Source of the DNA: an uncultured cyanobacterium
GTDB taxonomy: Bacteria > Cyanobacteriota > Cyanobacteriia > Phormidesmidales > Phormidesmidaceae
Assembly: GCA_963793265.1 (NCBI GenBank)
Contig: CAWBZI010000002.1
Span: forward strand, 96,001-160,000
Reading direction: 5' to 3'
Length of the DNA: 64,000 bases
Made by a program: the position numbers and the translations under genes. Of the stretch, positions 32,533 through 52,613 are shown in pieces. Below the pieces are notes generated by a model, which saw only the letters and a program-made list of their open reading frames with translations, did not search any database and had not been told where the DNA came from. Positions within the stretch are counted from its first letter, which is position 1. Each line of letters opens with the position of its first letter.

Positions 32533-32591
32533 GTATAAATTTAATGATTGAAGTCAGTATTATTGACTATTTGTTTCTTCTCTGATTAAGT
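32533..32591 (+). promoter_or_regulatory. Promoter duplicated upstream of the FHA-like gene
   Basis: 47/59 ungapped identity to 61852-61910; TTGACT-N17-TTAAGT. Confidence 0.7.
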
Positions 32592-32638
32592 TGATCCCAA
32601 GCATCACACTTAGCCTCATAACCTTTCTCTCTCGCAAT

Positions 32639-35362: not shown

Positions 35363-35399
35363 TAGTCAGCTTTCTGATGGTGTCGCGGCTAACCCATGA

Positions 35400-35439
35400 C
35401 AAATGTCATAGCTTCAATGCGAGTCATCTATGACATTTG
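35400..35439. promoter_or_regulatory. Inverted repeat upstream of caspase-lipase gene
   Basis: caaatgtcatag-N16-ctatgacatttg, overlapping the palindrome ATGACAAATGTCAT. Confidence 0.5.
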
Positions 35440-35634
35440 CGATGAATAAATGAGTGTTTGTCAAAATGCGGTTGCCAGTCAGTTTTTGTGCTTTATATTG
35501 AAAAGAGAACAGATTTCAAAAAGAGAATATTGCACCAGCAGAGAAAACACCGTAACTGCATCAGGGCTCATTCTCTTCACCTATACAGCATTGGAACCTA
35601 TCTGGGACTTATTCAAGTTCTTTAAGCATTCACC

Positions 35635-36222
35635 ATGACCCATCATCTCTATGCTCTACTGGTTGGTATTAATGAGTACGATAGGCGATCTGGCATCTCT
35701 TCACTACAGGGATGCACCAATGACGCCAACGCAATGAAAGCCTATCTGGAAGCTCGGGTTGCTAGCGACAAAACGCAGCTACATACCAAAATGCTGCTCA
35801 ATGAGCAGGCCACCCGGCAGGCAATTATTAATGGCTTTAGAGAGCATTTACAGCAGGCAAAAGCGGGCGATACCGTTCTCTTTTACTATGCAGGACACGG
35901 CTCTCAAGACAAAACACCAGAAGAGTTTTGGCCAACCACGCCTAGCAGACTTAATGAGACATTAGTATGCCACGATAGCCGCACGCCTGACGTTTGGGAT
36001 TTGGCAGATAAGGAACTCTCTAAGCTGATTGCAGAAGTGAGCCAGCAAAATCCTCATATTGCAATCGTGCTGGACTGTTGCCATTCAGGATCGGGGACTC
36101 GCAGTGATGAAAGAGCGGTGTTTAAAAGAGAACGACACCAATGGATCAGCGCGATCGCCCAGCTAGCAGCTTTTTGGTATCGGTTCAAGAATTGGAACAA
36201 ACGGAAAGAGAAAAATCCCTAA
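35635..36222 (+). CDS. Caspase-like (peptidase C14) p20 domain; N-terminal part of a frameshifted/split gene
   Basis: ALLVGINEY, LQGCTND, YYAGHGS, VLDCCHSGSGTR. Confidence 0.88.
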   Translation: MTHHLYALLVGINEYDRRSGISSLQGCTNDANAMKAYLEARVASDKTQLHTKMLLNEQATRQAIINGFREHLQQAKAGDTVLFYYAGHGSQDKTPEEFWPTTPSRLNETLVCHDSRTPDVWDLADKELSKLIAEVSQQNPHIAIVLDCCHSGSGTRSDERAVFKRERHQWISAIAQLAAFWYRFKNWNKRKEKNP

Positions 36223-39200
36223 CCTCTACACGCGCTCGTAGCCTCGATTTTTCAACAACAGGATGGCATTTGCCACAGGGGCGTCATGTGTTGATGGCAG
36301 CCTGTCGCGATGTTGAAGAGGCCAGTGAGTATCGTGCTCATGGAGAGCCCTGCGGCGCATTCTCCCACTTTTTGCTAGACACACTGCAAAGAACAGATAG
36401 CACACTGACTTACCGAGATCTTTTTAACGCAACCGCTGCTAAAACGCGAGCCAACGTATCAGCTCAGGCACCTCAGCTAGAAGCGCCCTATCTCGAAGAC
36501 CTTGAACAGCTTTTTTTAGGCGGACTGGTTGAGCCTTTCCCGCCTTACTTTACGCTCGCGTATTTGCCTGAACTCGGCTGGTGTGTTAACGGCGGCGCGC
36601 TGCATGGTGTTCAGCCACCGCTTAATAATGAAGCAACACAGCTAGCGCTGTTCTCTATCGAAGCTCAGCCAGAGAATCTCCATCGGTTAGAAGGTGCGAT
36701 CGCCAACGCTACCGTCACCGACGTACAGCCACACCTCAGCCAAATTACAACAGAGGCTGAGCTAGATACTGGCTTAACGTACAAAGCGATCATTACCTAC
36801 TTACCGGTGCCGCCGCTGAACGTTGTTTTAAAAGGAGATACCGAGCGCCTCGAAATACTTCGTCAGGCCATGCAAACGCCAACTGCCGCCTCTTCGAGCT
36901 ATCTCAAAGAAGTAACAGAGATTGCAGCAGCAAACATTTGCGTCACTGCTCATTCGTCGGGATATGTGATTGAACAATCGCAAGCGCAGTCAAGAGCGAT
37001 CGCAGTCGTTGAAGCGGCTGTTGAAAATGGGGCTCGGATCCTAGATAGTGCTGATAGTGTCGTTCGTTTGCTAGCGCATATTGCTCGATGGACAGGCGTT
37101 GCTGAGCTAGCGCCACCGCTAGGCAATCAGCTACCGGCTAACGCGGTAGAGCTTCAGATTTATGATGAAGATTGGCTTGTACAAGGCGAGCAGATACAGC
37201 TTGAATACGAACAGCACGCACAGCAGTCGCGTCCGCCAAGCTTTAGAGCCAAGCTGATTAATCATAGCGATCGCCCGCTCTACTGCGCGCTGCTCAACCT
37301 AACCGAAGAGTACTCAGTCAGCGCCCCTTTCTTTGGCAGTGGCGGCACCTGGTTGAACGCACATAGCGAAGTTTGGGTCACCGTTGCAGGCGCAACTCAG
37401 CTCAGCGACCTAATTCCGACCACGGTTCCTCAACGGCTATGGGAGCAGGGTGTAAGTGAATATCAAGATCGGCTGAAGCTGATTGCTAGCACAGCAGAGT
37501 TTGATCCCACTGTTCTGTTGCAAAACAAAATTGGTCAGGCTGAGGCGATCGCACAAAGAAGCATCGCTGTATCGAAAGACAATCTGTTTCGCCAGTTTGC
37601 CAGTCAGACAGCCAGTCAGACAGCCTCTCGTGATATTGGCATGGCCGAAGCGGTTGAGACTGTAGATCAGTGGATGACCAGTCAGCGGCTCATCACAACC
37701 AGACGACCGCAGCCGGACGTGCAAATATCGGCAGAAAATACTGTTTCTTTGGCAACAGCAGATGCGAGTAGAAGCATAGAACGGATCGCCATTCGCCCTC
37801 ATGCTCAGCTCAAAGCAAAAGCGAGACTTGTGAGTGCTGCTCAGACCACGCGAAATGCAAATGTTCCAGGCTTACCACCACTGCTTAGAGAACAGACTCA
37901 GCCTCTGGTGTTCGCCGCGCGTCGTAGCGTGTCATCTGCTCTAGACGCATTAGAACTCAGTGAAATCGATAGTGCAGATTCAGTAACGCCCAGCAATCCG
38001 CTGACGTTAATCATAGATGCACCGCTGGCACCAGGAGAATCTGTTCTGCCGGTTACCTACGATGGTGAATTCTTCGTGCCGCTAGGATATGGTCACCGCC
38101 GGGGCGACCAGCAAACTGAAGTTGTACTTCATCACCTTCCTGAACACGCTGCGCCAGCCGATTCTGACGAAAGCGGCAAGAGAGGGATTAGCAGCGCGCT
38201 CCAGATTGTTTTCAGAAAGATAGCGAGTCAGACGTTGGGTACAACGCTCAGTCAGAAGCTAGGCATTTTTTTTGAATATCCCATTCTGGCCTCTGTAGAA
38301 AAAGAGCATGGGCAAAATGATTTGCTTTATACCACTGATACTGATGCGATCGCAACGCTTGTCGCCAAAGCCGAGAACATCGCCATTTACATCCACGGCA
38401 TTACAGGTAATACAGAATATATGATGCCAAGCATTCAGACAGCTTGCATTGAGATGTCAGGCCAAGCTCGCCCCGTCAGTGACCTGTACGATCTGGTATT
38501 AACCTACAACTATGAGAGTCTCAATACCTCTATTGCTCAGAGTGCTGTTCAGCTCAAGCAAAAGCTAGCCGCTGTTGGCATTCTGCCTGGGCACAACAAA
38601 ACAGTTCACATCGTAGCGCACTCTATGGGCGGTCTTATTAGCCGCTGGTTTGTTGAACAAGAAGGCGGTAAAGAGATTGTTCAGCATCTGATAATGCTGG
38701 GCACACCCAACGCCGGATCGCCCTGGCCAGTTGTGCAAGCCGGACTCTTTAAGTCGCTTAGCTTTGCCCTCAATGGCCTGGCTACGGTGGCCTGGCCGCT
38801 GTCTCTTATTGGCGGCGTCCTAACAGCGCTCGAAGCAATCGATATTGCGCTAGATGAAATGGATCCTGGATCGGAGCTGCTAGCGCACTTGGCCGAAAGT
38901 GAACCGCCGATTCCCTACAGCATCGTAGCGGGTAATACTAGCCTGATACCAGTAGATGAAAAGGCCAAACTAAGAGATCGGCTCGCGCAAAAGCTGAACA
39001 AGCTCGCTGAGCTTCCTTTTTTGAAAGAAGACAATGACGTGGCAGTCTCTGTCAGCAGTATTCGACATGTGCCTGCGGGCAGACTCCACGCGCCCCAAGT
39101 TCGCGAGGTGGCCTGTAATCACATGGTTTACTTTATCGATCCGGCGGGGCTATCTGGGCTCAGTTGGGCCATCAATAGAGCCTTTGCGATGACCAAAAAA

Positions 39201-39224
39201 CAGCTTCAGAGTGCGACTCACTGA
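36141..39224 (+). CDS. Continuation of caspase gene: p10-like region, linker domains and C-terminal alpha/beta hydrolase (lipase-like)
   Basis: HVLMAACRDVEEASE...GAFSHFL...QAPQLE (p10-like); IHGITG, AHSMGG, LGTPNAGS, NDVAV, CNH. Overlaps the upstream ORF in the -1 frame. Confidence 0.85.
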   Translation: MDQRDRPASSFLVSVQELEQTEREKSLTSTRARSLDFSTTGWHLPQGRHVLMAACRDVEEASEYRAHGEPCGAFSHFLLDTLQRTDSTLTYRDLFNATAAKTRANVSAQAPQLEAPYLEDLEQLFLGGLVEPFPPYFTLAYLPELGWCVNGGALHGVQPPLNNEATQLALFSIEAQPENLHRLEGAIANATVTDVQPHLSQITTEAELDTGLTYKAIITYLPVPPLNVVLKGDTERLEILRQAMQTPTAASSSYLKEVTEIAAANICVTAHSSGYVIEQSQAQSRAIAVVEAAVENGARILDSADSVVRLLAHIARWTGVAELAPPLGNQLPANAVELQIYDEDWLVQGEQIQLEYEQHAQQSRPPSFRAKLINHSDRPLYCALLNLTEEYSVSAPFFGSGGTWLNAHSEVWVTVAGATQLSDLIPTTVPQRLWEQGVSEYQDRLKLIASTAEFDPTVLLQNKIGQAEAIAQRSIAVSKDNLFRQFASQTASQTASRDIGMAEAVETVDQWMTSQRLITTRRPQPDVQISAENTVSLATADASRSIERIAIRPHAQLKAKARLVSAAQTTRNANVPGLPPLLREQTQPLVFAARRSVSSALDALELSEIDSADSVTPSNPLTLIIDAPLAPGESVLPVTYDGEFFVPLGYGHRRGDQQTEVVLHHLPEHAAPADSDESGKRGISSALQIVFRKIASQTLGTTLSQKLGIFFEYPILASVEKEHGQNDLLYTTDTDAIATLVAKAENIAIYIHGITGNTEYMMPSIQTACIEMSGQARPVSDLYDLVLTYNYESLNTSIAQSAVQLKQKLAAVGILPGHNKTVHIVAHSMGGLISRWFVEQEGGKEIVQHLIMLGTPNAGSPWPVVQAGLFKSLSFALNGLATVAWPLSLIGGVLTALEAIDIALDEMDPGSELLAHLAESEPPIPYSIVAGNTSLIPVDEKAKLRDRLAQKLNKLAELPFLKEDNDVAVSVSSIRHVPAGRLHAPQVREVACNHMVYFIDPAGLSGLSWAINRAFAMTKKQLQSATH

Positions 39225-39295
39225 GCAGCGCTCAGATACAATCAGATACAACCTTTCCAACACACACGTTCAAACACACCAACACTCAAAACATC

Positions 39296-40042
39296 ATGAA
39301 ACTCATCACCACAGCCGACACCTATCTCAAAGCACAGCCTGCTGAGACTAACCAGCTTCAGTCTCAAAACAAACCAGAACTTCTTATTCCTATCAAGAAA
39401 GGAACAGCGTTAGAAGTTGCTGAACATTTCTTCTACGAAGGTAGCAGCGATACTCAAGCAGACAATCATATTTTCGTTCAGCTAGCTCAGCCATTTGCAG
39501 ATCAACAAAACCTGAGTTGGTTTGTAGAAAATCCTCATATCAGGATAGAAAGCTCCGAATTAAAAGACGAGCCCGCGCCAAAGCTAACTAGAGGCGTTGA
39601 CTACGGAAGCGATATTCATTTGCCCGGCATTAGCCGCCCGGTTGGCGTTAACGAGCCTATCTACCACGAGCCCAACCCTTCTCACTTTACCTGGAGTGAA
39701 CTGACAAAAGGCGGTACGCGAATTCCTGAAAACGATGCTATCACGCAGCGCATTGTCAGACTTTGCAAGTATATGGACGGGGTTCGAGAATTCTTGGGTA
39801 ACAAGCCGATTACGATAAATTCAGGCTATCGAGATCCTGATTCTAACTGGGCTGTACATGGAGCCTCTGATTCTCGGCACTTATATGGCGATGCCGTTGA
39901 CTTTTGGGTAGAAGGAATGGACGTAGAAGAGACTTTTCAACGGCTAAAAAGCTACCATCGCACAGGCGGGCTGGCTGTTGGCAACGGGTTTGTTCATTTA
40001 GACATGCGCCCTAGCGATAGATTGATAACGTGGAATTACTAG
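39296..40042 (+). CDS. Peptidase M15A family (D-Ala-D-Ala / peptidoglycan metallopeptidase)
   Basis: INSGYR, SRHLYGDAVD, FVHLDMR; no signal peptide. Confidence 0.88.
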   Translation: MKLITTADTYLKAQPAETNQLQSQNKPELLIPIKKGTALEVAEHFFYEGSSDTQADNHIFVQLAQPFADQQNLSWFVENPHIRIESSELKDEPAPKLTRGVDYGSDIHLPGISRPVGVNEPIYHEPNPSHFTWSELTKGGTRIPENDAITQRIVRLCKYMDGVREFLGNKPITINSGYRDPDSNWAVHGASDSRHLYGDAVDFWVEGMDVEETFQRLKSYHRTGGLAVGNGFVHLDMRPSDRLITWNY

Positions 40043-40100
40043 AAACCTTAATTCTGCTAAATACTGACGGAAAATACAACATTTTTTGAAGGATAAAGAC

Positions 40101-41168
40101 ATGACGACAACACAAGTGCAACCAAGGGGTCTGCTAGAGGCTAAAAGCTGCTGGTTTGTGCCGTGGGCAGAACTTAGCGATCTAGACAATGCAGCTAGCC
40201 CAGATCATGGAAAGCTAAGAAAAGTTGATTCGGAACTCTCTGAAGCGGGTACTTTTCTTGAGGCGGGTAGCCCGTTTACGATTTCTCTAGAAGCCTTTGC
40301 CGTGCAGAACGCTCACGACAGTGATGGCACAAACGATCTTCTGGTCAGAACGTTTGTGCGCTATGGAGATGAGCCAAAAACAGAAACTATAAATTATTTC
40401 GGCACTGACATCGCTGCGGCATCCTTTGTAGACAATCTGGAATATGAGCATGTCTTCTCCAGGCGTGATTTTTCTGAAAATGTTCGGATATGGCTCTCGC
40501 TAGAAATTGCAGAAATCGATAAGGGACTAGCAAAAGACGACGTTGCTTCTGGCCTAGAAAAAATGCGCGCTCAGTTTGGGGCTGTTTTTTCCTCATTCAT
40601 TCCGTTTGCGACAGTCGCTGGGGTTGCGATGGATACAGTTTCAGGGCTCAAGAAGATTAGAGAATCTGCTAGCCAGAACAAAAAAATTCTCTCTAGTCAG
40701 ATAGATCTTTATGCAATGACTTTTAGCGGCGGAGATGCGCCGCTGCGCTGCGGTGCATACGTTTTCTTTAATGAGGACGTGCCAGGCGTTCAGTACCGTT
40801 TAGGCTCAGGATTTAAGCTCAAACGCGCTGCTATAAAGGATAAAGACGTGCCGATTCTGCATGACTACGCGGTGGTAAAAATTACGCCCGGCTTTATTGA
40901 CTCAGGCAAGAATCCTGAGGAGATACTGAAGAATCAGGAGCTGGCCAAAGTGCTAAGTTCCGAAGATGACGGTGCCAGCGCAGAGCAACGTTCCGATCAC
41001 TTTGACTTTTTGTCTGGGCTGATTGATAGCGCCAATAAGCTCAAAGATATTGATTACTACCGCGAAGTAACAACAGCCGCTAACACGTTCAACCGTCCGC
41101 TTACGCCCGCCCAAGAAAATAGGCTCGTTGAGATTAAAACGAGACTAGGCCAGTATCTTTCTGACTAA
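40101..41168 (+). CDS. Hypothetical protein with central amphipathic/hydrophobic segment
   Basis: Long ORF in an operon context; contains FGAVFSSFIPFATVAGVAM; family not recognised. Confidence 0.75.
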   Translation: MTTTQVQPRGLLEAKSCWFVPWAELSDLDNAASPDHGKLRKVDSELSEAGTFLEAGSPFTISLEAFAVQNAHDSDGTNDLLVRTFVRYGDEPKTETINYFGTDIAAASFVDNLEYEHVFSRRDFSENVRIWLSLEIAEIDKGLAKDDVASGLEKMRAQFGAVFSSFIPFATVAGVAMDTVSGLKKIRESASQNKKILSSQIDLYAMTFSGGDAPLRCGAYVFFNEDVPGVQYRLGSGFKLKRAAIKDKDVPILHDYAVVKITPGFIDSGKNPEEILKNQELAKVLSSEDDGASAEQRSDHFDFLSGLIDSANKLKDIDYYREVTTAANTFNRPLTPAQENRLVEIKTRLGQYLSD

Positions 41169-41205
41169 AAAGTTTCAGCAACAAAACTCTCTAGAGGTAA
41201 TTAAA

Positions 41206-42105
41206 GTGATTTCAAGCGACAAGTTAAGAGACGGTGCACAGGTAGGAAAAGTTGGAAATCAATCGTTTGAGCTAATGAGACAAAATATAGCGCAAGTGAA
41301 AAGCGGGTTGTCTAGGGGCGATCGCGCACCCTCTTTCTCAGATACGCTCAAGCTAACAACACCTTTTATGCAGGGTGAAACGGTAAAGGCGCTGCAGTAC
41401 AATCTGTCAGACCTGAGCTTTGCAGCCCATGCAGACGGTACGTTTGGGCCATCGACCGAGGCCGCCGTTAAAGCTTTTCAACAGTCTCACGGACTGACGG
41501 CTGATGGCGTTGCAGGCCAGATCACCCTGACAAAAATTCGCGAGGTGAAGCGACAGGCCGTGACCAGTTCGGCCATGCCCGCTCACATGATGGATAGCGG
41601 CATGGTGTCTGACTGGGCAGGCGGCGATAAGCTTGCTGCGGTTGAGGCGATTAAACGAGAGGCCAGACGACAGAAGATTTCGGAGCGATCGCACATAGCC
41701 TACATCTTAGCCACTGTCGATCACGAAACAAACGGATCGTTTCAGCCAGTAGAGGAGGGCTACTATCTAGGAGCCAATGCAGAGGCTCATCGTCAAACGC
41801 TGGACTATTATCCTTACTACGGTCGAGGCTATGTGCAGATTACCTGGGCCGAGAACTATCACAAATACTCGAAGCTAACAGGTTTAGACTTGCTCAATCA
41901 GCCAGAGTGGATGCTGCGGCCAGACGTTTCTCTCTTTGTTTTGATAGATGGGATGAAGCGAGGCGTGTTCACAGGCAGGCGGCTGGATGACTTTACTACG
42001 GGTAGCCGTTTTGATTTTGTCGAAGCTCGTAGGATCATTAACGGTAAAGACAGGGCCGAAGAGATAGCGAGCCTGGCCGATAGCTGGCTGTCTGGAACTG
42101 CCTGA
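41206..42105 (+). CDS. Peptidoglycan-binding domain + GH19 (chitinase/lysozyme-like) hydrolase
   Basis: DGTFGPSTEAAVKAFQ..GLTADGVAG; AYILATVDHET, YYGRGYVQITWAENY, ARRIING; GAGG RBS before GTG. Confidence 0.88.
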   Translation: MISSDKLRDGAQVGKVGNQSFELMRQNIAQVKSGLSRGDRAPSFSDTLKLTTPFMQGETVKALQYNLSDLSFAAHADGTFGPSTEAAVKAFQQSHGLTADGVAGQITLTKIREVKRQAVTSSAMPAHMMDSGMVSDWAGGDKLAAVEAIKREARRQKISERSHIAYILATVDHETNGSFQPVEEGYYLGANAEAHRQTLDYYPYYGRGYVQITWAENYHKYSKLTGLDLLNQPEWMLRPDVSLFVLIDGMKRGVFTGRRLDDFTTGSRFDFVEARRIINGKDRAEEIASLADSWLSGTA

Positions 42106-42128
42106 GCTGCTGCTGTACGCTATTGAAT

Positions 42129-42159
42129 AGTCGCTGTTGTTAAACGGCAGCGACTTTAT
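42129..42159 (+). terminator. Intrinsic terminator closing the caspase-lipase to GH19 unit
   Basis: agtcgctgttg-ttaaa-cggcagcgact-ttat. Confidence 0.65.
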
Positions 42160-42186: not shown

Positions 42187-44430
42187 ATGCCTGTTCTTCG
42201 AGTCTGTAAAATTCTAGTTTTAGCTGCCAACCCTCAAGACACGTCAGGGCTGCGGCTAGATGAGGAGGTGCGCGGCATTCAGCGCAGTATTCAGATGGCA
42301 AAAGAGCGCGATCGCTTCCAAATCATCTCTGAATGGGCCGTAAGAACAGAAGACCTGATCCAAATACTGATGACCCATCAGCCGCAGATTGTTCATTTTA
42401 TTGGGCACGGCAGCGGTCAACAGGGCTTAGTGCTAGATGACGGCAGGGGGCGTAGCCAAACGGTGCCCACGCGGGCGCTGGCGAGACTGTTTCAGCAGGT
42501 GAGCAGCGTGGAGTGCGTACTGCTAAACGCCTGCTATTCTGACACGCAGGCGAAAGCGATTGTTCAGTTTGTTTCCTGCGTGGTGGGAATGAATCAGCAG
42601 ATTGGCGATCCGGCAGCGACCAGCTTTTCGCGGGGTTTTTATACCGCGCTAGGGCACGGCAGCGCCTATGAAGCCGCTTATGAAATGGGGCGTACGGCAA
42701 TTGACTTAGAAGGGATTACAGAAGTGGAAACGCCTGTGCTGAGAACCCGTACGGGCCGAGTAATCAATGAGCGGTCTGCGCTAGATACTCAGCAAGACAG
42801 GCAGGCGAGGGCTCAGCGCGGCGAACAGGTGAGGGCTCAGCATGTATTTATCAGCTATCGAGATCAGTCGCCAGATAAAGATCTTGCTCAAGTGTTTTAC
42901 GATGCTTTTATCGACGCTGGGCATAGCGCTTTTATGGCGGCGGAGAGTATTAGATTAGGGGAAGACTGGCGCGATCGCATTGCGCTAGAGCTACGCCAGT
43001 GCGACTACTTTTTGCTTTTACTCTCGCCGCTATCAGCGATGAGCGAGATGGTGACAGAAGAGGTAAAAAGAGCGCGATCGTTTAGAGATCGGCGCGAAGA
43101 CGGCAGGCCCACCATCTTACCGATTCGGGTCAAGTTTCCAATAGACGATCCGCTAAACTACGAGCTACGAGGATATTTGCAGAAGATTCAGCAGCGAGAA
43201 TGGCAGTCTGAGGCCGACACGCCCGCGCTATTGCTAGAGCTAATAGCATTGCTGCAAGATGAGGTAGCGCTGCCGATTAGTCAGCCTGTCAGCACAAGAG
43301 ATATCGGCCTTGACCTTAGCCTTGAACAGGACGAAAGGCCGCTGCTGCCGCGTTCTGTTGTAGAAAGCATTGACCAGCCGCCGCTGCCAGTCGCAGAGCC
43401 GGAGCTGAAAAGAGAGCCGGGTGGGTCGGTGCCGCTGAAGTCGGGGCTGTATGTAAATAGGTCACCGATTGAAGCGGACTGTTTTGCTGAGATTGAACAA
43501 CCCGGTGCGTTGATTCGGATAAAAGCGCCGCGTCAGATGGGCAAAACATCGCTGATGGCACGCATTCTCAATCATTCTAGAGAGCTGGGCTATCAGACGG
43601 TGCCGATTAGCTTTCAGCGGGCAGATAGCTGTTTGTTTAACGATTTAGACCTGCTGCTGAAGTGGTTTTGCTCGCAGGTGGGGCGCAGGCTCAAAAAGCT
43701 GGCTGCGCTGGAAGATTACTGGACTGGCTTTGGCAGTAAGGACAAGTGCAATGCTTATTTTGAAGAATGCCTGCTGGCAGATTTGGAAGCGCCGCTGGTG
43801 CTAGCGCTTGATGAGGTAGACATGGTGTTTCCACATCCGGCGGTAGCGGACGACTTTTTTGCGCTGGTGCGCTCCTGGTATGAGTCGGCGCGCTATGGAG
43901 ACTTTGGTAGCGAGCTGTGGGAAAACCTGCGGCTGGTGATTGTTCATTCTACCGAAGTCTATGTGCCGCTGAACATCAACCAGTCTCCTTTTAACGTGGG
44001 CAAAAATGTAGAGCTGATGGAGTTTACCGCCGAGCAGGTGCAAGATCTAGCTGAGCGCTACGATCCGTCTGCTCGGATGAGTCAGACGCAGGCGCTGATG
44101 GCTTTGGTGAACGGGCATCCCTATCTAATTCGCAAAGCGCTGTACCACCTGCGGCGAGAAGATTTAACGCTGAATGAATTGGCTGAAACGGCGGCGACTG
44201 AAGCAGGCATCTATAGCGATCATCTGCGGCGGCATCTATACGTATTGCAAGACTATCCGCGGCTAGCAGAGGCATTTCGGCAGGTGGTGACCAAGCGTCA
44301 GGGCGTAGATATCGATGCGGAGTCGTCGTTTAAGTTGGAGAGTATGGGGCTGGTGAGACTGTCGGGTAATGAGGCAGCGCCGCGCTGCGAGGTGTACCGC
44401 GAGTATTTTTGCGAGCATCTAGAAGGCTAA
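42187..44430 (+). CDS. CHAT + TIR + AAA_35-like ATPase protein
   Basis: [12 protein letters not shown] / LLNACYS; TIR VFISY...[36 protein letters not shown]. Confidence 0.9.
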
Positions 44431-44468
44431 AGGAAGGTCAAAAGGAAACTCTAAAAAGGAGGTCGGCG

Positions 44469-47400
44469 GTGAGAACAGCAACGGCAATTCAGTATACAGT
44501 TGGCGGAGCGCTGCGGCAGGATGCGCCTACTTATGTGGTTAGACAGGCAGATAGCGAACTTTACGAGGCGCTGATGGCCCGAGAGTATTGCTATGTGTTC
44601 AACTCTCGGCAAATGGGAAAGTCTAGCCTGCGGGTGCAGGTAATGCAGCGGCTGCTGAGTGAGGGCATGGCCTGCGGAGTTGTTGAGGTGACCAGTATTG
44701 TTGAATCAGGGACGACTTCAGAGCAGTGGTATCTGGGACTGATTCGGCGGCTGGCTCGGAGCTTGCGGCTCAAGGTGAAGGTATTGGAATGGTGGCGCGA
44801 TCGCACGGGCCTTTCGCCTATTCAATGCTTCAGCGAGTTTGTTGAAGACGTGCTGCTGCCCGCAATTGATCGCCCTGTTGTCATTTTCATAGACGAAATT
44901 GACAGTTTGTTTAATTTCGACTTCAACGACGATTTTTTCGCGCTGATTCGCGCTTTTTATCAGGAGCGTGCGGAAAATGAGGCGTATCGGTACTTGAGCT
45001 TTGTGCTATTAGGCGTAGCAACACCAGGCGATTTGATTCGTAACAAGCAGCGAACATCGTTTAATATTGGCGGCCAGTTTATCAACTTGAAGGGGTTTCA
45101 ACCGACTGAAACCAAACCTTTAGAGGCTGGCATTATCCGGCAAGCAGACAATCCGACAGCGGTGCTAGCGGCAATTCTAGACTGGACAAAGGGACAGCCG
45201 TTTTTAACACAACGGCTGTGTCAGCTTATTGCTGAAATGGATTTTAAGATTGTTGCAGGTGAGGAGCAGGCGCAGGTTGATCAGATAGTGCGATCGCGCC
45301 TTATAGAAGACTGGGAAGCCCAAGACGTATCGGTGCATTTGAAAACGATTCGCGATCGCATCCTCATTGATGAAACGCAAGCGGGCCGACTGCTGGGCCT
45401 ATACGAGCGCATTCTAATAGCTCAGAAAGTGCCTGCAACGGGCAGCGATGAACAAATTCAGCTACGGCTATCAGGGCTAATCCGTGAAGAGAATGGCTGC
45501 TTGCGGGTAGCCAATCCCATCTACCGGGCCGTATTTAATCAAGCCTGGATTGATGCGAGATTGTTGAGGCTGCGACCCTATGGCAGAGAGATTGCCGCCT
45601 GGTTGGCTTCAGCGAAAAAAGATGAGTCCCGGCTGTTAGAAGGAAAGGCTTTACAGAATGCGAGAGATTGGGCAGCCGGAAAGCTACTGAGCGACGACGA
45701 TCGGCTCTTTTTAGATGCCAGCCAGGAGCTAAGTCAGCGAGAGTTGCGTAAAGTGCTCTCTGCTGAGCAGCAGGCCAAAGAGATTTTGGCAGCGGCGAAC
45801 CGAAAGGCCGAGTCTCGGCTGCGGATAGGACGACTGGCTTTGGGCGGCACGGTTTTGGGTGCGATCGCTGCGGCCAGTGTAGCTGGATACGGGCTTTGGA
45901 ATGTAAGGCACCAAAAAGCAAACCTGGCACTTGAAATATCAGGAACTAACGCACTGCAAAAGTTTCAAAACAGGCCCATAGAAAGCTTGGTGGATGCGAT
46001 GAAAGCTGGGCAGCAGCTTCAGCAGCAGTCTAGACGCTCAGTAGACACTGATAGCTATCAGCACGCTGTTTATAGTCCATTAGTGGCGCTAGATAAGATT
46101 CTTCGAGAGATAACAGAAGTTAATCAAATTGAAATTTACAGCCGGGTTAGCAGTGCTAGCTTTAGCCCTGACGGACGGCGGATTGTAACCGCCAGCGAGA
46201 ATAGCGGCGCGCAGATATGGGATGCTGAGTCAGGCAAGGAACTACAGCAGTTCGAAGGCCATTCGGACGAGGTGACCAGCGCTAGCTTTAGCAGTGATGG
46301 ACAAAGAATCGTAACGACCAGTTACGACAATACCGTGCGGATATGGGATGCCGACTCAGGTGAGGAGCTACAGCAGCTCGACAGCGACTGGGAGAGGGTG
46401 AACAGCGCTAGCTTTAGTAATGACGGACGACGGATTGTAACGGCTAGTTATGACAACACCGTGCGGATATGGGACGCTGCGTCGGGCGCAGAACTACAAC
46501 AGCTTAAAGGCTATCCATCCACAGTCATCATTGCAAGCTTCAGCCCTGATGGGCAACAGATTGTAACGATCAGTGAGGCCACCGTGCGGATATGGGATGC
46601 CGAGTCGGGTGCACAACTACAAAAAGTTGAAGGTCATTCATCCATCGTGCACAGTGCCAGCTTCAGCCCTAATGGGAAGCAGATTGTAACAGCCAGTGCC
46701 GACAACACCGTGCGGATATGGGACGCTGCGTCGGGCGCAGAACTACAAAAGTTTGAAGGTCATTCGTCCATCGTGCACAGTGCTAGCTTTAGTGAGGATG
46801 GGCAGCGGATCTTAACAGCTAGTAATGATAACACCGTGCGGATATGGGACGCTGCGTCGGGCGCAGAACTACAAAAGTTTGAAGGTCATTCGTCCATCGT
46901 GCACAGTGCTAGCTTTAGCAAAGATGGGCAGCGGATTGTAACGGCCAGTTACGACAACACTGTGCGGATATGGGATACCGAGTCGGACAAGAAGATACAA
47001 CAGCTTGAAGGTCATTCATCCATACTGAACAGTGCTAGCTTTAGCGAAGATGGGCAGCGAATTGTAACGGCCAGTGGCGACACCACCGCACGGGTATGGA
47101 ATGCCAATTCAGGCGCAGAACTACAACAGCTCAAAGGCTATGAATACGGAGTCAACAGCGCCAGCTTTAGCCCTGATGGGCAGCGGATTGTAACGGCTAG
47201 TTGGGACAACACCGTGCGGGTATGGAATGCCGAATCGGGCAAAGAACTACAACAGCTCAAGGGACATTCATCTGCGGCGTATAGCGCCAGCTTTAGCCCT
47301 GATGGGCAGCGGATTGTAACGGCTAGTTGGGACAACACCGCGCGGGTATGGGATGCCGAATCAGGCGCAGAACTGCTACAGCTTGGCGGTCATTCATCGT

Positions 47401-48533
47401 CAATGAACAGTGCTAGCTTTAGCAAGGATGGGCGACGGATTGTAACGGCTAGTTGGGACAACACCGCGCGGGTATGGGATGCCGAATCAGGCGCAGAACT
47501 GCTACAGCTTGACGGTCATTCGTCTATAGTGAACAGTGCTAGCTTCAGCCGCGATGGGCAGCGGATTGTGACGGCGAGTAATGATAACACCACGCGGGTA
47601 TGGGATGCCGAATCAGGCGCAGAACTACTACAGCTTGACGGTCATTCATCGTCGGTGCGTAGTGCCAGCTTCAGCCGCGATGGGCAGCGGATTGTGACGG
47701 CGAGTGATGACTACACCGCACGGGTATGGGACGCCGAGTCGGGGGCGCTACTACAAAAGCTTGAAGGCCACACAGCGCCGGTTCGGGGTGCTAACTTCAG
47801 CCGCGACGGGCAGTGGATTGTAACGGCCAGCGTTGACAACACGGCTCGGATTTGGCCAGCACACAACCTGACTCAGCTACTCGAACAGGGCTGTGACTAC
47901 CTCAATGCTTATTTTGTGACGCATCCATATGATTTGGAGACACTGACAAGCTGTCAGACTGACGCTCGCAAGATAGCGGCTGCTCCCGCTTTTATCAAAG
48001 CAGGCGATCGCAATGCTGCCAATCATCAAATTGAACAAGCCATTGCCAGCTACCAAGACGCACTCCGGTGGAATCCGAGCGTCAGTATACAGCCTGAGCA
48101 ACGTGCCCAAGTTCAGTCTGCCCCTTTTTGGATTGGGCAGGGTAAAAACGCCATGAGCAAAGATGATACTTTAAAAGCAATAGAAGATATTGAAACAGCC
48201 TTTCAATTAGATCCCTCTGTTAGGGTTTCTGCCGTAGTTTTGAGCAGCCTCTGCTGGGTAGGAAGCCTTGAGGACTATGCAAAAGAGGCGATTTCCATCT
48301 GTGATGAGGCTGTAGAACGCCTGCCAACCGCTAATGTCTATGACAGTAGAGGAGTTGCTAGAGCTTTGATAGGAGACTATAGCGGCGCTGTTGCCGATTT
48401 GGAGAAAGCAATAGCGCTAGGTCTTGACGAGGAGTATGAGGTGAAAAGAAAAGCCTGGGTTACAGCGCTCAAGGCGGGCAGAAATCCATTGACGCCTAGT
48501 GAGCTAGAAGCTTTAAAGGCTGGCGAAACGTGA
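44469..48533 (+). CDS. AAA_35-like ATPase + TM + 14 WD40 repeats + TPR
   Basis: GTG start with [57 protein letters not shown] repeats; C-terminal [12 protein letters not shown]. Confidence 0.92.
46140..47860 (+). repeat. Array of 14 highly similar ~126-bp WD40-coding repeats
   Basis: An identical stretch of ~85 bp recurs at ~46705 and ~46831; 126-bp period. Confidence 0.9.
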
Positions 48534-48641: not shown

Positions 48642-51600
48642 ATGTCTGAATTCTCTCACAATCTAGCCGTTGTTGTTGGCATCGATCGCTACACCAACGG
48701 CATTGCACCCCTTCAGACGGCGGTGAGCGATGTGAGGGCGATCGCACATCAGCTACAGCAGGCCCATCACTACCAAGTTCTCTCATACATCAACGAGCAG
48801 GCCACATTAGCCAACTTGCAGCACTTGCTAACGGTCATTTTGCCGCAGCAGGTCAAGCCCGATAGCCGCCTGCTCCTTTACTTTGCGGGGCACGGCATTG
48901 CCCTCAACGGTGACGAGCAGCCGGAAGGCTACCTAATTCCGCAAGATGCTACGACTGGAAACACCAGCGGCTACCTCTCGATGCCGATGCTACAAGCGGC
49001 GCTGAGCAAGCTGCCCTGTCGGCACTTTTTAGGCATTTTAGACTGCTGCTTTGCAGGCATGTTTCGCTGGTCTAGCACGCGCGATATCAGCTACGTTCCA
49101 GACGTAATTTACAAAGAGCGCTACGACCGCTTTATTCAAGATGCGGCCTGGCAAATTATCACGTCTGCCGCCTACGACCAGCGGGCCTTAGATTCTCTAT
49201 CTATCGAGACTGACCGGGGACAGGTTGGCAATCACTCTCCTTTCGCCACGGCGCTACTAGAAGCCCTTTCTGGCGAAGCAGATCTCTATCCTGCTGCAAA
49301 GAAAAGTATATCTGCTGGCGACGGTGTGATTACAGCAACAGAGCTGTATTTATATATACGAGATCGGGTTGAGCCGATAGCAGCAGCCAGAGAGCAGCGG
49401 CAAACACCGGGTTTGTGGCCGCTGCGAAGACACGACAAAGGAGAATATATCTTTCTGTCGCCGGAGCATCCGCTCAACCTGCCGCCTGCCCCAGTGCTGA
49501 GTCCATCGAAGAATCCCTATCGTGGACTGAAAGCATTTGAGCCCGCTGATAGCGATCTGTTTTTTGGCAGACAGAGATTGAGCCAGCAGCTTTTTAAGGC
49601 AGTGAGCCAGCAGCCTTTAACGGTCGTGCTAGGCGCTTCGGGCAGCGGTAAGTCTAGCCTGGCAAAGGCCGGGCTGGTTGCCAAGCTGATGCAGCAAGCG
49701 CGTAGCGAGGCGGTTAGCGGAGTCGTTGACCACTGGCAGGTTTTGCCGGTTCTGCGTTTAGGTGATGACCCATTTTCAGCTTTGCAACAGATGTTGAGTG
49801 AGGAAGGAGAAGGACAGGAGACGCTAACTGACTATGTGAACGATTGGCGTCGGCGCGTGCCTGGCTGTCGGGTGGTGCTGGTGATAGATCAGTTTGAAGA
49901 ATTGATTACGCTTGGGGCAAGTGAGCCTGAAAGAGAGTCTTTTTTGGAGATGCTGAATCGCACGATCGCTACTCACCCAAACCAGCTACGCCTTGTCCTC
50001 ACACTGCGCTCTGATTTTGAACCTCAGCTTCAAAGCACTGCCCTCAAGCCCTATTGGCACGACGCTCGCTTTATCGTTACACCGATGAGCAGAGCCGACC
50101 TGCGCGCTGCCATTGTTCAACCTGCTGCCGCACGCGTTATTCATTTCCAATCAGACGACGCTGAGCATTCGCTTGTCGATCGGCTCATTGACGAGGTAGC
50201 AGAGATGCCAGGTGCGCTGCCGCTGCTCTCTTTTACGCTTAGCGAGCTATATCTGAAATATCTAGAGCGACAGAATGAGGCAAAGCGTAAAGGGCAGATC
50301 ATTGAGCGAACGATTACAGAGGCCGACTATAGAGAATTAGGAGGAGTTGCCCGTAGTCTGACTCAGCGAGCCGACGAGGAGTATGAGACGTTAGTTGCTC
50401 GCGATCCAAAGTACGCGCTGACCATCCGCAATATGATGCTGCGCCTGGTGGCCGTGAACGGCGCGCAAATTGCTCGCAGAAGCGTTTTATTAGAAGAGTT
50501 TGACTATCCAACGATAGAGAATCAAAGGGTGCAGACGGTGATTCAACAGTTTACGGCGGCGCGTTTGCTTGTGAAGGGCGAGGGCGCTGACGGGCGGATC
50601 TATGTAGAACCAGCTCACGATGCTCTGGTGCTGGGCTGGCAGCGATTGTTGGCCTGGCAGCAGATAGAAAAGGCCGATTTGATATTGCAGCGGCGGCTAA
50701 CATCAGCGGCACAGGAGTGGCGATCGCGTCCCGCCAAAGAGGCACCCAAGTTCCTTTGGCACGCGAACCCCTATCTCGATGTTTTCCAGCAAATGCTAAA
50801 GATAAATAGCCACCGATTAAACAAACTCGAAACCACCTTTGTTCAAAAAAGCTTACTGCGCAGGCGTCAAAATGCAAGCTGGCGATGGCGAATTGCGATC
50901 GCGACTATTCTAGGGCTTAGCGGCCTGTCAATTGCCGCCATTGCCGGACGTAGAGATGCCCTAGTCGGCCAAATTAGCACCGCTCAAAATGCGGCAGACG
51001 TCAATTTTCGCGCAGGCCAATCGCTCGACGCCCTGCGCGATAGTCTGGTAGCTGCGCAGATTTTTGAGCAGCCGCTGCTACAGATTTTTAGACCTGATCA
51101 ACAATTGCGATCGCGGGTCACCGGAATGCTGCAAACCATGGTCTATGCCACCCCAGAGCGCAACCGCCTAATCGCACATCAGGGCACTGTTCGCAGCGAT
51201 ACGAGCCCAAATGGTGAGTTTGTTGTCAGCGCTGGGGAGGATGACAGGGTTGTTGTTTGGAACCAGCAAGGACAAAAACAGGCCCAGTGGACAGCTCAGC
51301 AGGAGCAGATATACAGCGTTCGCATTAGCCTCGATAGCCAGACGATTGCAACTGGCGGGGCAGACGGCAGCGTTCGTTTGTGGAACGCTCAAGGGCAGCT
51401 ACTTACAGAATTAAAAGGACATCGCGATATTGTCAGAGGGATTAGCTTTAGTCCTGATGGGCGATCGCTGGCGACCGCTGGCCAAGACAAAGCAATTCGA
51501 CTTTGGGATTTACAACAGCAGCAGATACGCGCGACCTTGGCAGGCCATAAAGCAGCCGTTTGGAGCATTGCCTTTAGTCCCAACGGCCAGCAGCTAGCCA

Positions 51601-52613
51601 GCGCCTCTGACGACGGCACGTTTCGACTTTGGAGCGCGCAGGGCAGGCCGATACAGACCTTTGAAGCGCAGCAGGGAAACCTTCACGCTATTCGGTTTAG
51701 CCCCCAGGGCAATCGCCTGGCAACAGCCGGTGAAGACGGTCGAATTCTCCTGTGGAACTTAAAGGGTGAGCCCTTGGCAATTTTGACAGGGCATCAGGGA
51801 CGAATATGGAGCCTGAACTTTAACGCGCAGGGGCAGCTTGGCAGCGCTTCAGGAGATGGGACGATACGTCTGTGGTCAGAAGTGGGGCAAACGTTAGAAG
51901 TGTTGCAGAGTCATCAGGGGCCGGTGAGAACGGTTAGTTTCGCCTCTAATTCTCAACAGTTAGTAACCAGTGGTGATGACAGTACAGTCCGCCTGTGGGA
52001 TTTCCAAAGGCAGCAGGCGGCGGTGCCGGATTATATTAAAGATGAGATGGACGGAAGTTTGGTTGCGATCAGTCCTGATGGGCAGCAGACGGCTACCGCC
52101 GGAGACGATGGAACTGTAAGATTGTGGAGCTTTGAAGGTGAGCTGCTAGGCCAGTTTGGAGGACACTTGGGAGCGGTGAAAAGCGTTGCTTTTAGCCCTG
52201 ATGGCGAGCAGCTTGCCAGTGGTGGAGAAGATGGTACCGTCCGTCTGTGGAACACGCAGGAGAATAGTCAAGACTTTCAGAGCGCCGTCTTCCAGGTTCA
52301 GAGTGCAGCGGTGAATTCAGTTTCGTTTCAGCCTACCGGAGGGCTTCTCGCTTCTGGCGACAGCGCGGGTAACGTGCAGCTATGGGATCTCAATGCTAAA
52401 GAATTGTTTGCTAGCTGGCAGGCGCATCCGGGCTCAGCCATTCGCGATATTAGAATAGGCGATAGAGAGATTGTGACTGCAGCAGAAGGGGATGCCTATG
52501 TGTGGCCTTTAGAAGATTTTGGCCAGCTTCAGGAAAGAGGATGCGGGCTGATAGAGAACTATCTGAGCCATGCAGAAGGTAGAAGTGGAGGCGATCGCAA
52601 CCTTTGCTCGTAA
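48642..52613 (+). CDS. Caspase (C14) + nSTAND1-type NTPase + TM + WD40 repeats
   Basis: LYFAGHG, ILDCCFAG; NPYRGLKAF, GASGSGKSS, VIDQFEE, GALPLL; TM IAIATILGLSGLSIAAIAG; WD repeats. Confidence 0.92.
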   Translation: MSEFSHNLAVVVGIDRYTNGIAPLQTAVSDVRAIAHQLQQAHHYQVLSYINEQATLANLQHLLTVILPQQVKPDSRLLLYFAGHGIALNGDEQPEGYLIPQDATTGNTSGYLSMPMLQAALSKLPCRHFLGILDCCFAGMFRWSSTRDISYVPDVIYKERYDRFIQDAAWQIITSAAYDQRALDSLSIETDRGQVGNHSPFATALLEALSGEADLYPAAKKSISAGDGVITATELYLYIRDRVEPIAAAREQRQTPGLWPLRRHDKGEYIFLSPEHPLNLPPAPVLSPSKNPYRGLKAFEPADSDLFFGRQRLSQQLFKAVSQQPLTVVLGASGSGKSSLAKAGLVAKLMQQARSEAVSGVVDHWQVLPVLRLGDDPFSALQQMLSEEGEGQETLTDYVNDWRRRVPGCRVVLVIDQFEELITLGASEPERESFLEMLNRTIATHPNQLRLVLTLRSDFEPQLQSTALKPYWHDARFIVTPMSRADLRAAIVQPAAARVIHFQSDDAEHSLVDRLIDEVAEMPGALPLLSFTLSELYLKYLERQNEAKRKGQIIERTITEADYRELGGVARSLTQRADEEYETLVARDPKYALTIRNMMLRLVAVNGAQIARRSVLLEEFDYPTIENQRVQTVIQQFTAARLLVKGEGADGRIYVEPAHDALVLGWQRLLAWQQIEKADLILQRRLTSAAQEWRSRPAKEAPKFLWHANPYLDVFQQMLKINSHRLNKLETTFVQKSLLRRRQNASWRWRIAIATILGLSGLSIAAIAGRRDALVGQISTAQNAADVNFRAGQSLDALRDSLVAAQIFEQPLLQIFRPDQQLRSRVTGMLQTMVYATPERNRLIAHQGTVRSDTSPNGEFVVSAGEDDRVVVWNQQGQKQAQWTAQQEQIYSVRISLDSQTIATGGADGSVRLWNAQGQLLTELKGHRDIVRGISFSPDGRSLATAGQDKAIRLWDLQQQQIRATLAGHKAAVWSIAFSPNGQQLASASDDGTFRLWSAQGRPIQTFEAQQGNLHAIRFSPQGNRLATAGEDGRILLWNLKGEPLAILTGHQGRIWSLNFNAQGQLGSASGDGTIRLWSEVGQTLEVLQSHQGPVRTVSFASNSQQLVTSGDDSTVRLWDFQRQQAAVPDYIKDEMDGSLVAISPDGQQTATAGDDGTVRLWSFEGELLGQFGGHLGAVKSVAFSPDGEQLASGGEDGTVRLWNTQENSQDFQSAVFQVQSAAVNSVSFQPTGGLLASGDSAGNVQLWDLNAKELFASWQAHPGSAIRDIRIGDREIVTAAEGDAYVWPLEDFGQLQERGCGLIENYLSHAEGRSGGDRNLCS

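Follow-up and report, generated by a model that had tools for sequence, protein, structure and literature searches.

Can a set of adjacent genes in a cyanobacterial genome serve to lyse the cell that encodes it? The question is raised by a run of genes at 35.6-42.1 kb of a 64,000-nucleotide stretch of DNA (positions 96,001 to 160,000 of contig CAWBZI010000002.1) from an uncultured member of the Phormidesmidaceae, referred to below as the window. The run, here called the cassette, encodes a caspase joined to a lipase-like alpha/beta-hydrolase, two peptidoglycan hydrolases and, between these, an uncharacterised protein modelled as a C2-like beta-sandwich. The answer proposed here, to which we give an even chance, is that this region forms the lytic effector arm of a caspase/STAND system that serves cyanobacteria in programmed death or in defence against phage. 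The proposal builds on the domain content of the genes, the intact catalytic residues, the absence of export signals and a co-location that recurs, in shuffled form, in other cyanobacteria. Following a published precedent (Evans et al., 2025), the caspase would license the hydrolase; the C2-like protein and the hydrolase would breach the cytoplasmic membrane, and the wall enzymes would then lyse the cell.

Autolytic cyanobacterial death with early loss of peptidoglycan has been described morphologically, and orthocaspases are suspected of a part in it; the accessible text of the review on this subject names no executioner substrates (PMC7475262). The locus provides a concrete gene set for such a death, comprising sensor NTPases, a caspase-hydrolase, two cytoplasm-bound wall enzymes and an uncharacterised protein of membrane type. 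If the proposal is true, protease-gated defence can end in real lysis by host-owned endolysins, beyond pores, nucleases and NAD depletion, and a protein family that lacks a Pfam entry would receive its first function. If the model fails, a well-conserved neighbourhood is still in need of explanation.

Gene content of the cassette

The features of the cassette are the following, the first gene being split into two open reading frames (ORFs) in this assembly:

35635..36222, + strand: 5' ORF of the caspase-lipase gene, encoding the metacaspase p20 part with His (YYAGHG) and Cys (DCCHSG); Peptidase_C14 3.2e-17, profile positions 3-139 of 233
36124..36127, + strand: A4 run with the reading-frame break, one A fewer than in relatives and metagenome contigs
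36141..39224, + strand: 3' ORF of the caspase-lipase gene, encoding the remainder of the caspase, a beta-rich spacer of ~560 amino acids (aa) and a C-terminal Ser-Asp-His alpha/beta-hydrolase
39296..40042, + strand: Peptidase_M15_3, a LAS-type zinc peptidoglycan peptidase; Pfam 1.5e-18, 67.4 bits; PHROG endolysin 3e-24; PDB 1lbu 2.5e-9
40086..41168, + strand: uncharacterised protein of 355-360 aa, likely start ATG 40101; modelled with a C2-like beta-sandwich, a hydrophobic insert and a C-terminal helical hairpin
41206..42105, + strand: PG_binding_1 domain and GH19-like muramidase; PG_binding_1 1.8e-17; Glyco_hydro_19 26.9 bits (cut-off 25.5)

All lie in the same orientation in the ORF list, with gaps between the genes of 71, 43-58 and 37 nt, which bears out the tight, co-oriented spacing described in an earlier note made from the sequence of this DNA.

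The caspase part matches Peptidase_C14 (PF00656) with 63 bits on the window fragment and 80 bits on the intact orthologue, and its closest PDB relatives, by sequence and by fold, are the metacaspases AtMC4/9, TbMCA2 and Yca1. PADLOC also returned a caspase match on the caspase-lipase orthologue and recognised no other cassette protein. The C-terminal hydrolase of 36141-39224 is DUF7379/PGAP1/Palm_thioest/LCAT-like (Pfam 1.5e-10). His96 and Cys157 of the caspase and Ser999 (AHSMGG), Asp1137 and His1173 of the hydrolase are invariant in 6/6 aligned orthologues; in an alignment of 30 sequences the caspase His/Cys and the hydrolase Asp/His are again invariant and the hydrolase Ser nearly so. The triad is predicted to be catalytically intact and the hydrolase to be of the lipase/esterase kind. 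An AlphaFold2 (AF2) model of a full-length orthologue (predicted local distance difference test, pLDDT, 72; predicted template modelling score, pTM, 0.49) comprises the caspase, several beta-rich domains and the alpha/beta-hydrolase, with low-confidence lid regions in the latter, and its fold matches metacaspases and MALT1.

In the assembly the caspase domain ends at profile position 139 of 233 and continues in the -1 frame. In G020 and G032, which belong to the same genus as the genome of the window (G000), the orthologues are uninterrupted ORFs of 1206 and 1194 aa. At the site of the break the G020 protein reads VFAKRKTATDERDRP. The two frames of the window give VFK and KRTTPMDQRDRP there, as would be seen if a run of five A at 36124-36127 had lost one. 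When 35700-36600 was compared with contigs of four public metagenome runs, the A-run was covered by three runs, from two studies (2+1), and all three, at >=99% identity to the window, show an extra A behind 36123. One run may be the genome's own source, and the runs are thus not fully independent of the assembly. Since A5 is found in 3/3 covering runs, an intact caspase-lipase exists in nature, and the A4 of the window is either an assembly error or a strain-specific lesion. Programmed -1 frameshifting at the A-run was rejected, as the codons GTG TTT AAA AGA give no in-register X XXY YYZ heptamer and relatives and environmental contigs simply carry one more A. The caspase joined to a Ser-Asp-His lipase-like domain that the earlier note had reported therefore stands as to its domains and catalytic residues, and is divided between two ORFs in this assembly.

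The two wall enzymes belong to different families. The closest solved relative of the M15 protein is 1lbu, a zinc D-Ala-D-Ala carboxypeptidase of Streptomyces, and Pfam finds no PG_binding_1 domain in it. The GH19 protein, whose Glyco_hydro_19 match barely exceeds the cut-off, is related to PHROG endolysin families and, in the PDB, to GH19 chitinases and the endolysin 7rum. The M15 protein contains SRHLYGDAVD...VHLD and the GH19 protein HET...VEE, which we take to be the M15 zinc-site motif and a GH19-like catalytic stretch. By a crude Kyte-Doolittle (KD) scan the M15, GH19 and C2-like proteins do not start with a hydrophobic leader, and across the loci of the C2-like family such a leader was found in 0/15 partner hydrolases (KD19 test, likewise crude and with uncertain start codons). 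The reported pairing of two peptidoglycan-hydrolase families without signal peptides accordingly holds at the level of Pfam (M15_3 and GH19) and of this crude scan, and both enzymes are predicted to be cytoplasmic as encoded.

The protein encoded between them has no match in Pfam, PADLOC or PHROGs, in agreement with the earlier note, which had left it unassigned. The AF2 model of the 360-aa protein (pLDDT 79.4; pTM 0.81) has a beta-sandwich at residues ~59-270, a helical insert at 150-197 and two long C-terminal helices. The insert contains a conserved hydrophobic stretch, FGA(I/V)F..(L/F)IPFATVAGVA; residues 164-182 (KD 1.72) form the only hydrophobic segment found among the cassette proteins by the KD scan. 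With helix hydrophobic moments of 0.14-0.34 and this single stretch, the term amphipathic that had been given to the protein is not supported. The linker at residues 291-300 is acidic and poorly modelled (mean pLDDT 59), and residue 302, also in the linker, is R or K in 21/23 homologues, which makes it a plausible site for an Arg/Lys-specific metacaspase and nothing beyond that. A complex prediction for two copies of the G020 caspase domain (residues 1-320) with the G020 C2-like protein scored 0.00 and 0.00 and is uninformative.

The assignment to the C2 type comes from structural comparison. About four fifths of the best 50 VIA rows are, by their entry titles, C2 domains or C2-containing proteins, and among these rows the C2 matches have Z 5.4-7.0 over 108-139 aligned residues at 6-16% identity; in the best 50 rows of Foldseek against the PDB, isolated C2 domains reach probabilities of 0.92-1.00. 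The matched proteins include cPLA2, E-Syt, ferlins, Munc13, PLC, PI3K and the perforin C2. The Z values lie below the range that the aligner counts as safe. The protein, which represents a new family, is confidently modelled as a beta-sandwich that appears C2-like, a membrane-binding type. No gasdermin occurs among the best 50 rows of either search, and Pfam gives no gasdermin match.

This family is broad. A profile search of 1.84 billion representatives gave 181 relatives (131 at E <= 1e-10), and most of those listed have 320-360 aa; a credible Pfam family was found in 0/80 scanned relatives, three of which have a single marginal and unrelated match (E 0.0016-0.0047). The 35 clusters of homologues in a large protein collection are all named 'hypothetical', as are the nearest ESM-Atlas clusters, which are mostly from Pseudomonadota and Cyanobacteriota, and one distant cluster includes a protein named from Archaeoglobus. 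Overall the 181 representative clusters reach other phyla, and a full-length structural match is found in a giant virus: the sole strong match in BFVD is A0A1V0SF49 of Hokovirus HKV1, an uncharacterised protein of 323 aa (E 3.4e-12, TM 0.58/0.63) that aligns with the C2-like model over its whole length. The distant member P0104 gave a single weak match in metagenome contigs (36% over 77 residues), and a tblastn search of plasmids with P0061 gave none.

Recurrence of the gene set

Homologues of the 360-aa protein are present in 9/60 related genomes (8/36 in the genus and 1/24 outside it), and when one genome of each species was scanned the family turned up at 35 loci, all cyanobacterial. Removal of duplicates left 39 unique loci, 3 of which were too short to score. 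In the remaining 36, the three genes on each side of the C2-like gene were identified with tblastn and Pfam, with these counts:

peptidoglycan hydrolase within three genes of the C2-like gene: 12/36 loci
caspase gene in the locus of the C2-like gene: 11/36 loci
both peptidoglycan hydrolase and caspase at the C2-like gene: 10/36 loci

The complete four-gene set is syntenic in G020, where the 1206-aa caspase-lipase is intact, and functionally equivalent sets consisting of the C2-like protein, signal-less hydrolases of other families and a caspase/lipase, fused or split, recur with the gene order changed in nine or more other loci, which represent several genera. The earlier note had named failure of the genes to co-occur in other genomes as grounds for abandoning its idea; they do co-occur. 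The neighbourhood search with the 40101-41168 protein that it suggested places the 10/36 loci with both hydrolase and caspase in three deep clades. Because of this co-occurrence, which includes the G020 synteny and the recurring equivalent sets, the view that the genes form a module is supported. A tree of 37 homologues places the loci with a hydrolase link in three deep, well-supported clades, and the label of hydrolase linkage changes 5 times, at least 4 of these changes being forced by supported branches. Leptolyngbya and Spirulina-type loci share the order hydrolase, C2-like gene, caspase-lipase, CHAT or nSTAND1 genes.

The partner hydrolases represent 10 Pfam families (M15_3, GH19, M74, VanY, Phage_lysozyme, C39_2, YkuD, Amidase_2, Glucosaminidase and M23), a diversity that appears to reflect non-orthologous replacement within a kept context. 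They are arranged as follows, PGB standing for the peptidoglycan-binding domain:

M15_3 and PGB-GH19 (window and G020)
M74-PGB-PGB-GH19
PGB x3-GH19
VanY-PGB x3, with or without GH19
Phage_lysozyme-PGB, with or without YkuD
C39_2
VanY-PGB, Amidase_2-PGB and Glucosaminidase-Amidase_2-LysM-M23 (single genome)

The caspase-lipase fusion itself is the ordinary part of the finding, being common in cyanobacteria and already annotated. The family comprises 323 clusters at E <= 1e-5, nearly all with PF00656 and PF24096, and most of the 120 listed clusters have 1150-1350 aa; in Nostoc, Acaryochloris, Kamptonema, Moorena and elsewhere its members go by the name 'caspase family protein'. The gene is found in 22/36 genomes of the genus and, at E <= 1e-40, in 10/251 genomes across the phylum. 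Caspase and hydrolase are encoded by a single fused ORF in 6/6 aligned orthologues and by adjacent separate genes in two loci (L018 and L034).

Across cyanobacteria the gene that usually accompanies the caspase-lipase, as a conserved partner, is a caspase-nSTAND1-WD40 gene; the window has it at 48642-52613. It is the next gene in 6/9 sampled caspase-lipase loci and lies nearby in a seventh, and it neighbours the caspase-lipase in 5/6 further loci of the genus. In one of these six, locus L076 (2308-11481, - strand), a single open frame of 3057 aa fuses the caspase-lipase with the caspase-nSTAND1 protein, a Rosetta-stone-like fusion that supports a functional link between the two. Hydrolases also accompany the caspase-lipase: an M74-PG_binding hydrolase is found in 3/9 sampled loci, and G000 has ~9 PG_binding_1 genes, 2 of which adjoin 2 of its caspase-lipase genes. 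In four loci from four other genera (L024, L029, L030 and L031) the caspase-lipase ends in a low-complexity linker and a hydrophobic segment of ~20 residues, which would put the hydrolase at the membrane; this tail-anchor-like C-terminus is absent from the Phormidesmis caspase-lipases, the window copy included.

A second caspase-DUF7379 paralogue of 1278 aa lies outside the window at G000:C2:424900-444400 (L069), with an M74-PG_binding_1 gene just upstream and contractile-injection-system genes (sheath, gp19 tube, T4_baseplate, Pvc16_N) just downstream. Among its orthologues in 6 related genomes a caspase-nSTAND1-WD40 gene follows in 5/6 and injection-system genes are adjacent in 0/6, for which reason the association with the injection system was treated as a coincidence.

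Two observations concern particular branches of the C2-like family. In a Phormidesmis metagenome-assembled genome (L012, 5582-7729, - strand) a protein-arginine deiminase (PAD + PAD_M, 9e-124) is encoded directly downstream of the C2-like gene, between an M74-PGB-GH19 gene and a caspase-nSTAND1-WD40 gene, and is possibly one more effector or modifier of such cassettes. A divergent subfamily (33-37% identity) occupies L036, L037, L039, L043, L045, L047, L048 and L049 (~8700-12500 in each), where the C2-like gene belongs to a conserved set with genes for an uncharacterised protein of ~170 aa, a 343-aa Exo_endo_phos enzyme and mostly an RPE65 carotenoid oxygenase; it sometimes adjoins CHAT-TIR-AAA_35.

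Proposed mechanism, rival explanations and known systems

The presumed sensors and switches of the system would be encoded downstream on the same strand:

42187..44430, + strand: CHAT(partial)-TIR_2-AAA_35 STAND-type NTPase; Pfam AAA_35 3.7e-135, TIR_2 1.4e-17, CHAT 1.6e-8
44409..48533, + strand: P-loop NTPase fused to WD40 repeats; Pfam WD40; BLAST similarity to the AAA_35 part of the preceding gene
48642..52613, + strand: caspase-nSTAND1-WD40, with Apaf-1-like architecture; Pfam nSTAND1 9e-97; PADLOC caspase 9.5e-15

In the proposed course of events a trigger, such as phage or damage, would cause a STAND NTPase to oligomerise and caspase domains to become active. The caspase part of the cassette, which is a metacaspase (orthocaspase), predicted to be of the Arg/Lys type, fused via the beta-rich spacer to the alpha/beta-hydrolase, could then license its own or a neighbouring hydrolase, as in another caspase/hydrolase pair. 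It might also cut the C2-like protein before its C-terminal helices, at residue 302, where a basic residue is conserved. Hydrolase and C2-like protein would together damage the cytoplasmic membrane, and the signal-less wall hydrolases would thereby reach the murein much as a phage endolysin does via a holin. Lysis would follow and, in a filament, would remove one infected or damaged cell. A further-reaching version, possible and yet rather doubtful, is that the C2-like family is a new, non-phage membrane-breaching partner of cytoplasmic peptidoglycan hydrolases, that is, a metacaspase-licensed cellular analogue of the holin, which with the caspase-lipase and the Apaf-1-like STAND protein executes the autolytic death of filamentous cyanobacteria. 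That death is marked by early murein loss, cell ghosts and necridia.

Several observations weigh against the proposed lytic role. Cleavage, membrane damage and lysis are all predicted from sequence. In 24/36 evaluable loci of the C2-like family no wall hydrolase lies within three genes; a well-supported clade of 13 sequences has another conserved setting, 10 of them beside Exo_endo_phos and/or RPE65, three close relatives adjoin a FAD-oxidoreductase-TPR gene, and several loci sit amid housekeeping genes. Conversely, a homologue of the C2-like protein was found in 0/9 randomly sampled caspase-lipase loci. No adaptor domain common to the NTPases and the M15, C2-like and GH19 proteins was detected by BLAST or Pfam. 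The label 'lipase' derives from weak PGAP1/LCAT/Palm_thioest matches, some below the Pfam cut-offs, the strength of the C2 matches is middling (Z <= 7.0, a value that may reflect common arrangement only), and the caspase gene of this assembly is broken by the frame change at A4.

In a rival explanation the C2-like protein and the wall hydrolases would be an autonomous module for autolysis, wall remodelling or protein release, of which the caspase and STAND genes are independent neighbours; in a variant, a holin/endolysin-like pair would act in filament breakage, or in non-lytic secretion as in Serratia ChiW/ChiX. Such a module is suggested by the many loci of the family that have no caspase, by two hydrolase-bearing loci without a caspase in the scanned genes, which count equally against the lytic-arm proposal (L035, with three wall-hydrolase genes around the C2-like gene, and L032, with a lysozyme-PGB-YkuD gene only), and by the existence of host-encoded secretion systems with an M15 endopeptidase, as the available text on ChiX records (PMC5778951). 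We nevertheless consider it unlikely, for a caspase is also present in 10/12 hydrolase-linked loci, caspase-lipase loci that lack the C2-like protein recruit M74-PGB hydrolases (3/9), and the L032 contig is just 7.9 kb long with the C2-like gene at its start, so that an upstream caspase could escape view. That the cytoplasmic PG_binding_1 proteins are instead sensors which alert the caspase/STAND machinery to muropeptides set free by wall damage or phage lysins, in the manner of animal NOD1/2, would suit their lack of an export signal and the presence of peptidoglycan-binding domains among the sensor domains fused to defence proteases, as given in the accessible part of Evans et al. (2025; 10.1101/2025.11.14.688446). 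It is the least probable of the explanations, a far-fetched one given that the partners bring ten catalytic hydrolase families, often several per protein, that the window M15 protein has no PG_binding_1 domain, and that the M15 and GH19-like stretches mentioned above, presumably catalytic, are present.

The same genes might also have come together without any coupling of their products, as independent defence and death genes piled up in a variable 'conflict island' in which the endolysin-like genes are remnants of prophage lysis. The matches of the M15 and GH19 proteins to phage endolysin PHROGs, the dense STAND/CHAT/TIR/WD40 run at 32-60 kb and the variation of the neighbours of the C2-like gene between close relatives would all fit such an island. 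We hold this to be quite improbable, since an equivalent functional set with different hydrolase families is found in three deep clades. Further against it, and as the earlier note had observed, the window holds no phage structural genes: Pfam found neither phage structural nor integrase families in the 43 ORFs scanned. A phage origin of the C2-like protein was rejected, as it matches no PHROG and, by tblastn, none of 50,697 phage records, and the significant BFVD matches of its model include no phage protein. Nor does it resemble a holin (small, with transmembrane helices and phage context), having 360 aa and one moderately hydrophobic stretch, and with intergenic gaps of at most 81 nt no small holin ORF fits between the genes. 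Very improbable, finally, is that the system is dead in this strain, with a real frameshift, a caspase-lipase pseudogene and downstream genes that are relics. The assembly does have A4 where the frame needs A5; the covering metagenome contigs, however, all carry A5, the downstream ORFs are intact and conserved, and the best-matching run may be the genome's source sample, in which case A4 would be an assembly error.

The lytic-arm proposal has precedents for several of its parts. In the modules of Evans et al. (bioRxiv 10.1101/2025.11.14.688446) an alpha/beta-hydrolase zymogen becomes a death effector through cleavage by a caspase, and, as far as the accessible text goes, the genes of a caspase-family Cys protease and of an alpha/beta-hydrolase closest to lipases go together, in association with STAND and beta-propeller sensors, cyanobacteria included. 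The window likewise links a caspase-like protease to a triad-intact alpha/beta-hydrolase. It differs from what that text describes in that one polypeptide of 1196 aa has ~560 aa of beta-rich spacer between protease and hydrolase, and in the addition of wall hydrolases and the C2-like protein, of which the same text makes no mention; moreover, the DUF7379 domain is a putative counterpart of the Lysobacter hydrolase characterised there, which is cleaved at R-G sites. The protease-activated pore formers Pepco (117 aa) and EACC1 (cleaved to fragments of 5.7 and 7.1 kDa), as described in the text available, were set apart from the C2-like protein by size alone.

Lysozyme and papain-like peptidoglycan peptidase effectors have been described in a peptidase/STAND conflict system (Kaur, Burroughs, Iyer and Aravind, 2020; PMC7159879). 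According to the sections consulted, these NTP-dependent conflict systems of multicellular prokaryotes share with the window STAND NTPases, caspase/CHAT/TIR domains and alpha/beta-hydrolase effectors, and are enriched in filamentous cyanobacteria. In the window STAND NTPase and peptidase domains occur in one neighbourhood (42187-59870), over which AAA_35 and nSTAND1 (twice) are combined with CHAT or caspase N-termini. Whereas the peptidoglycan effectors of those systems are joined, in the same sections, to trypsin/NucA systems via the EAD1 adaptor, no EAD or other common adaptor was found here by Pfam or BLAST, and sequence-level searches of the cassette and NTPase genes gave no EAD Pfam match. 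The terms 'C2 domain' and 'lipase' have 0 occurrences in the text of that paper. Orthologues of Apaf-1 that begin with a caspase are reported from bacteria, the closest ones in cyanobacteria (Nature 2026; PMC13581612). In the part of the paper available they are similar in architecture to the caspase-nSTAND1-WD40 protein of 48642-52613 and to the gene after most caspase-lipases; that part describes the sensor alone, and neither downstream targets nor a link to wall hydrolases.

The signal-less M15 and GH19 enzymes are of the endolysin type and would need a membrane lesion to reach the murein, in which they resemble the products of phage holin-endolysin cassettes. Mycobacteriophage LysA and LysB are a pair of endolysin and lipid esterase, to which the wall enzymes and the alpha/beta-hydrolase are analogous. 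Unlike those cassettes, the window locus has no phage context and no small holin with several transmembrane segments; the candidate membrane partner is a soluble-looking 360-aa C2-like protein without phage relatives, and protease and NTPase switches would replace holin timing. Bacterial gasdermin systems, reportedly described by Johnson et al. in 2022, are similar in that a caspase-like protease lies beside a non-enzymatic protein potentially licensed by cleavage for membrane attack, and differ in the fold, here a C2-like sandwich without a gasdermin among the best 50 fold rows, and in the greater length of the protein here (360 aa). Eukaryotic C2 domains (cPLA2, synaptotagmin/E-Syt, ferlins, perforin C2) give the best fold matches, over model residues ~59-270 (Z 6.2-7.0, 108-139 residues aligned). 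These sandwiches bind lipids, and several form part of phospholipases or pore formers. In contrast to them, the window protein shows no sequence similarity (6-16% identity) and has an added helical hydrophobic insert of 50 residues and a C-terminal helical hairpin.

A literature search found no paper on DUF7379 and, with supplements outside its scope, among the papers listed, none on a gene set that combines an orthocaspase with a wall hydrolase or lipase. The earlier note had known of no description of the gene set, which holds for the combination and for the C2-like protein; the module of caspase and alpha/beta-hydrolase and the use of peptidoglycan effectors are already reported in the accessible text of Evans et al. 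(2025) and Kaur et al. (2020). Systems of this kind are thus already known, and what was not found in the literature searched is the combination, with the C2-like family as a steady companion of signal-less wall hydrolases.

Flanking signals and neighbouring genes

The region around the cassette contains these candidate signals:

35395-35411/35428-35444, no strand: inverted repeat upstream of the caspase gene, containing the palindrome ATGACAAATGTCAT; 17-nt arms, 88% complementary
35472..35499, + strand: sigma-70-like promoter match TTGCCA-16-TATATT, 10/12 consensus positions, a consensus match only
42129..42155, + strand: hairpin of 12-13 bp followed by UUUAUGCAUUU, located behind the GH19 stop; weak as a terminator candidate and not conserved

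The inverted repeat said to open the cassette is present with the arms listed, although its fold is unremarkable (z -1.83; 10/200 shuffles equally good) and its energy thus not significant. The 130 nt around it are 83% identical to the orthologous G020 locus, and the TATATT box is retained in the G020 upstream region. The non-coding region 35380-35510, which contains the palindrome ATGACAAATGTCAT and GAGTGTTTGTCAAAA, is conserved at least as well (83% to G020) as the cassette proteins (61-82% amino-acid identity to G020), and on account of this conservation and the palindrome it is a candidate operator. A small ORF at 35450-35638 that overlaps the caspase start (ATGA) was rejected as a gene, having no protein-level conservation in G020 or G032.

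The terminator said to close the cassette is no more than a weak candidate. The hairpin at 42129-42155 was not called by a terminator scan, is absent from G020 and has a poor U-tract; the 81-nt region that holds it folds well (z -2.82). The next co-oriented gene (CHAT-TIR-AAA_35) begins 81 nt past the GH19 stop and the same-strand run reaches ~59.9 kb, so that the unit is not closed at 42159. The four genes are therefore not free-standing, as they had been presented, and are embedded in a co-oriented run of STAND/CHAT/TIR/WD40 genes. The CHAT-TIR_2-AAA_35 gene is syntenic in G020, with 83% identity.

On the other side the cassette is preceded on the + strand by a TPR-CHAT gene with a signal peptide (32591-35362). 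STAND/CHAT/TIR/WD40 genes are dense over 32-60 kb, and housekeeping genes occupy the left of the window. At 52673-59870 a triad is formed by an uncharacterised protein of 498 aa, DUF1822 and an nSTAND1-WD40 protein whose N-terminal region resembles, by eye, a CHAT/caspase dyad; a DUF1822 gene also lies beside an nSTAND1-type or CHAT gene in L013 and L074. A large protein with a two-partner secretion (TPS) domain (2.6e-40), unrelated to the cassette, is encoded at 61941-63998 on the + strand and runs off the end of the window.

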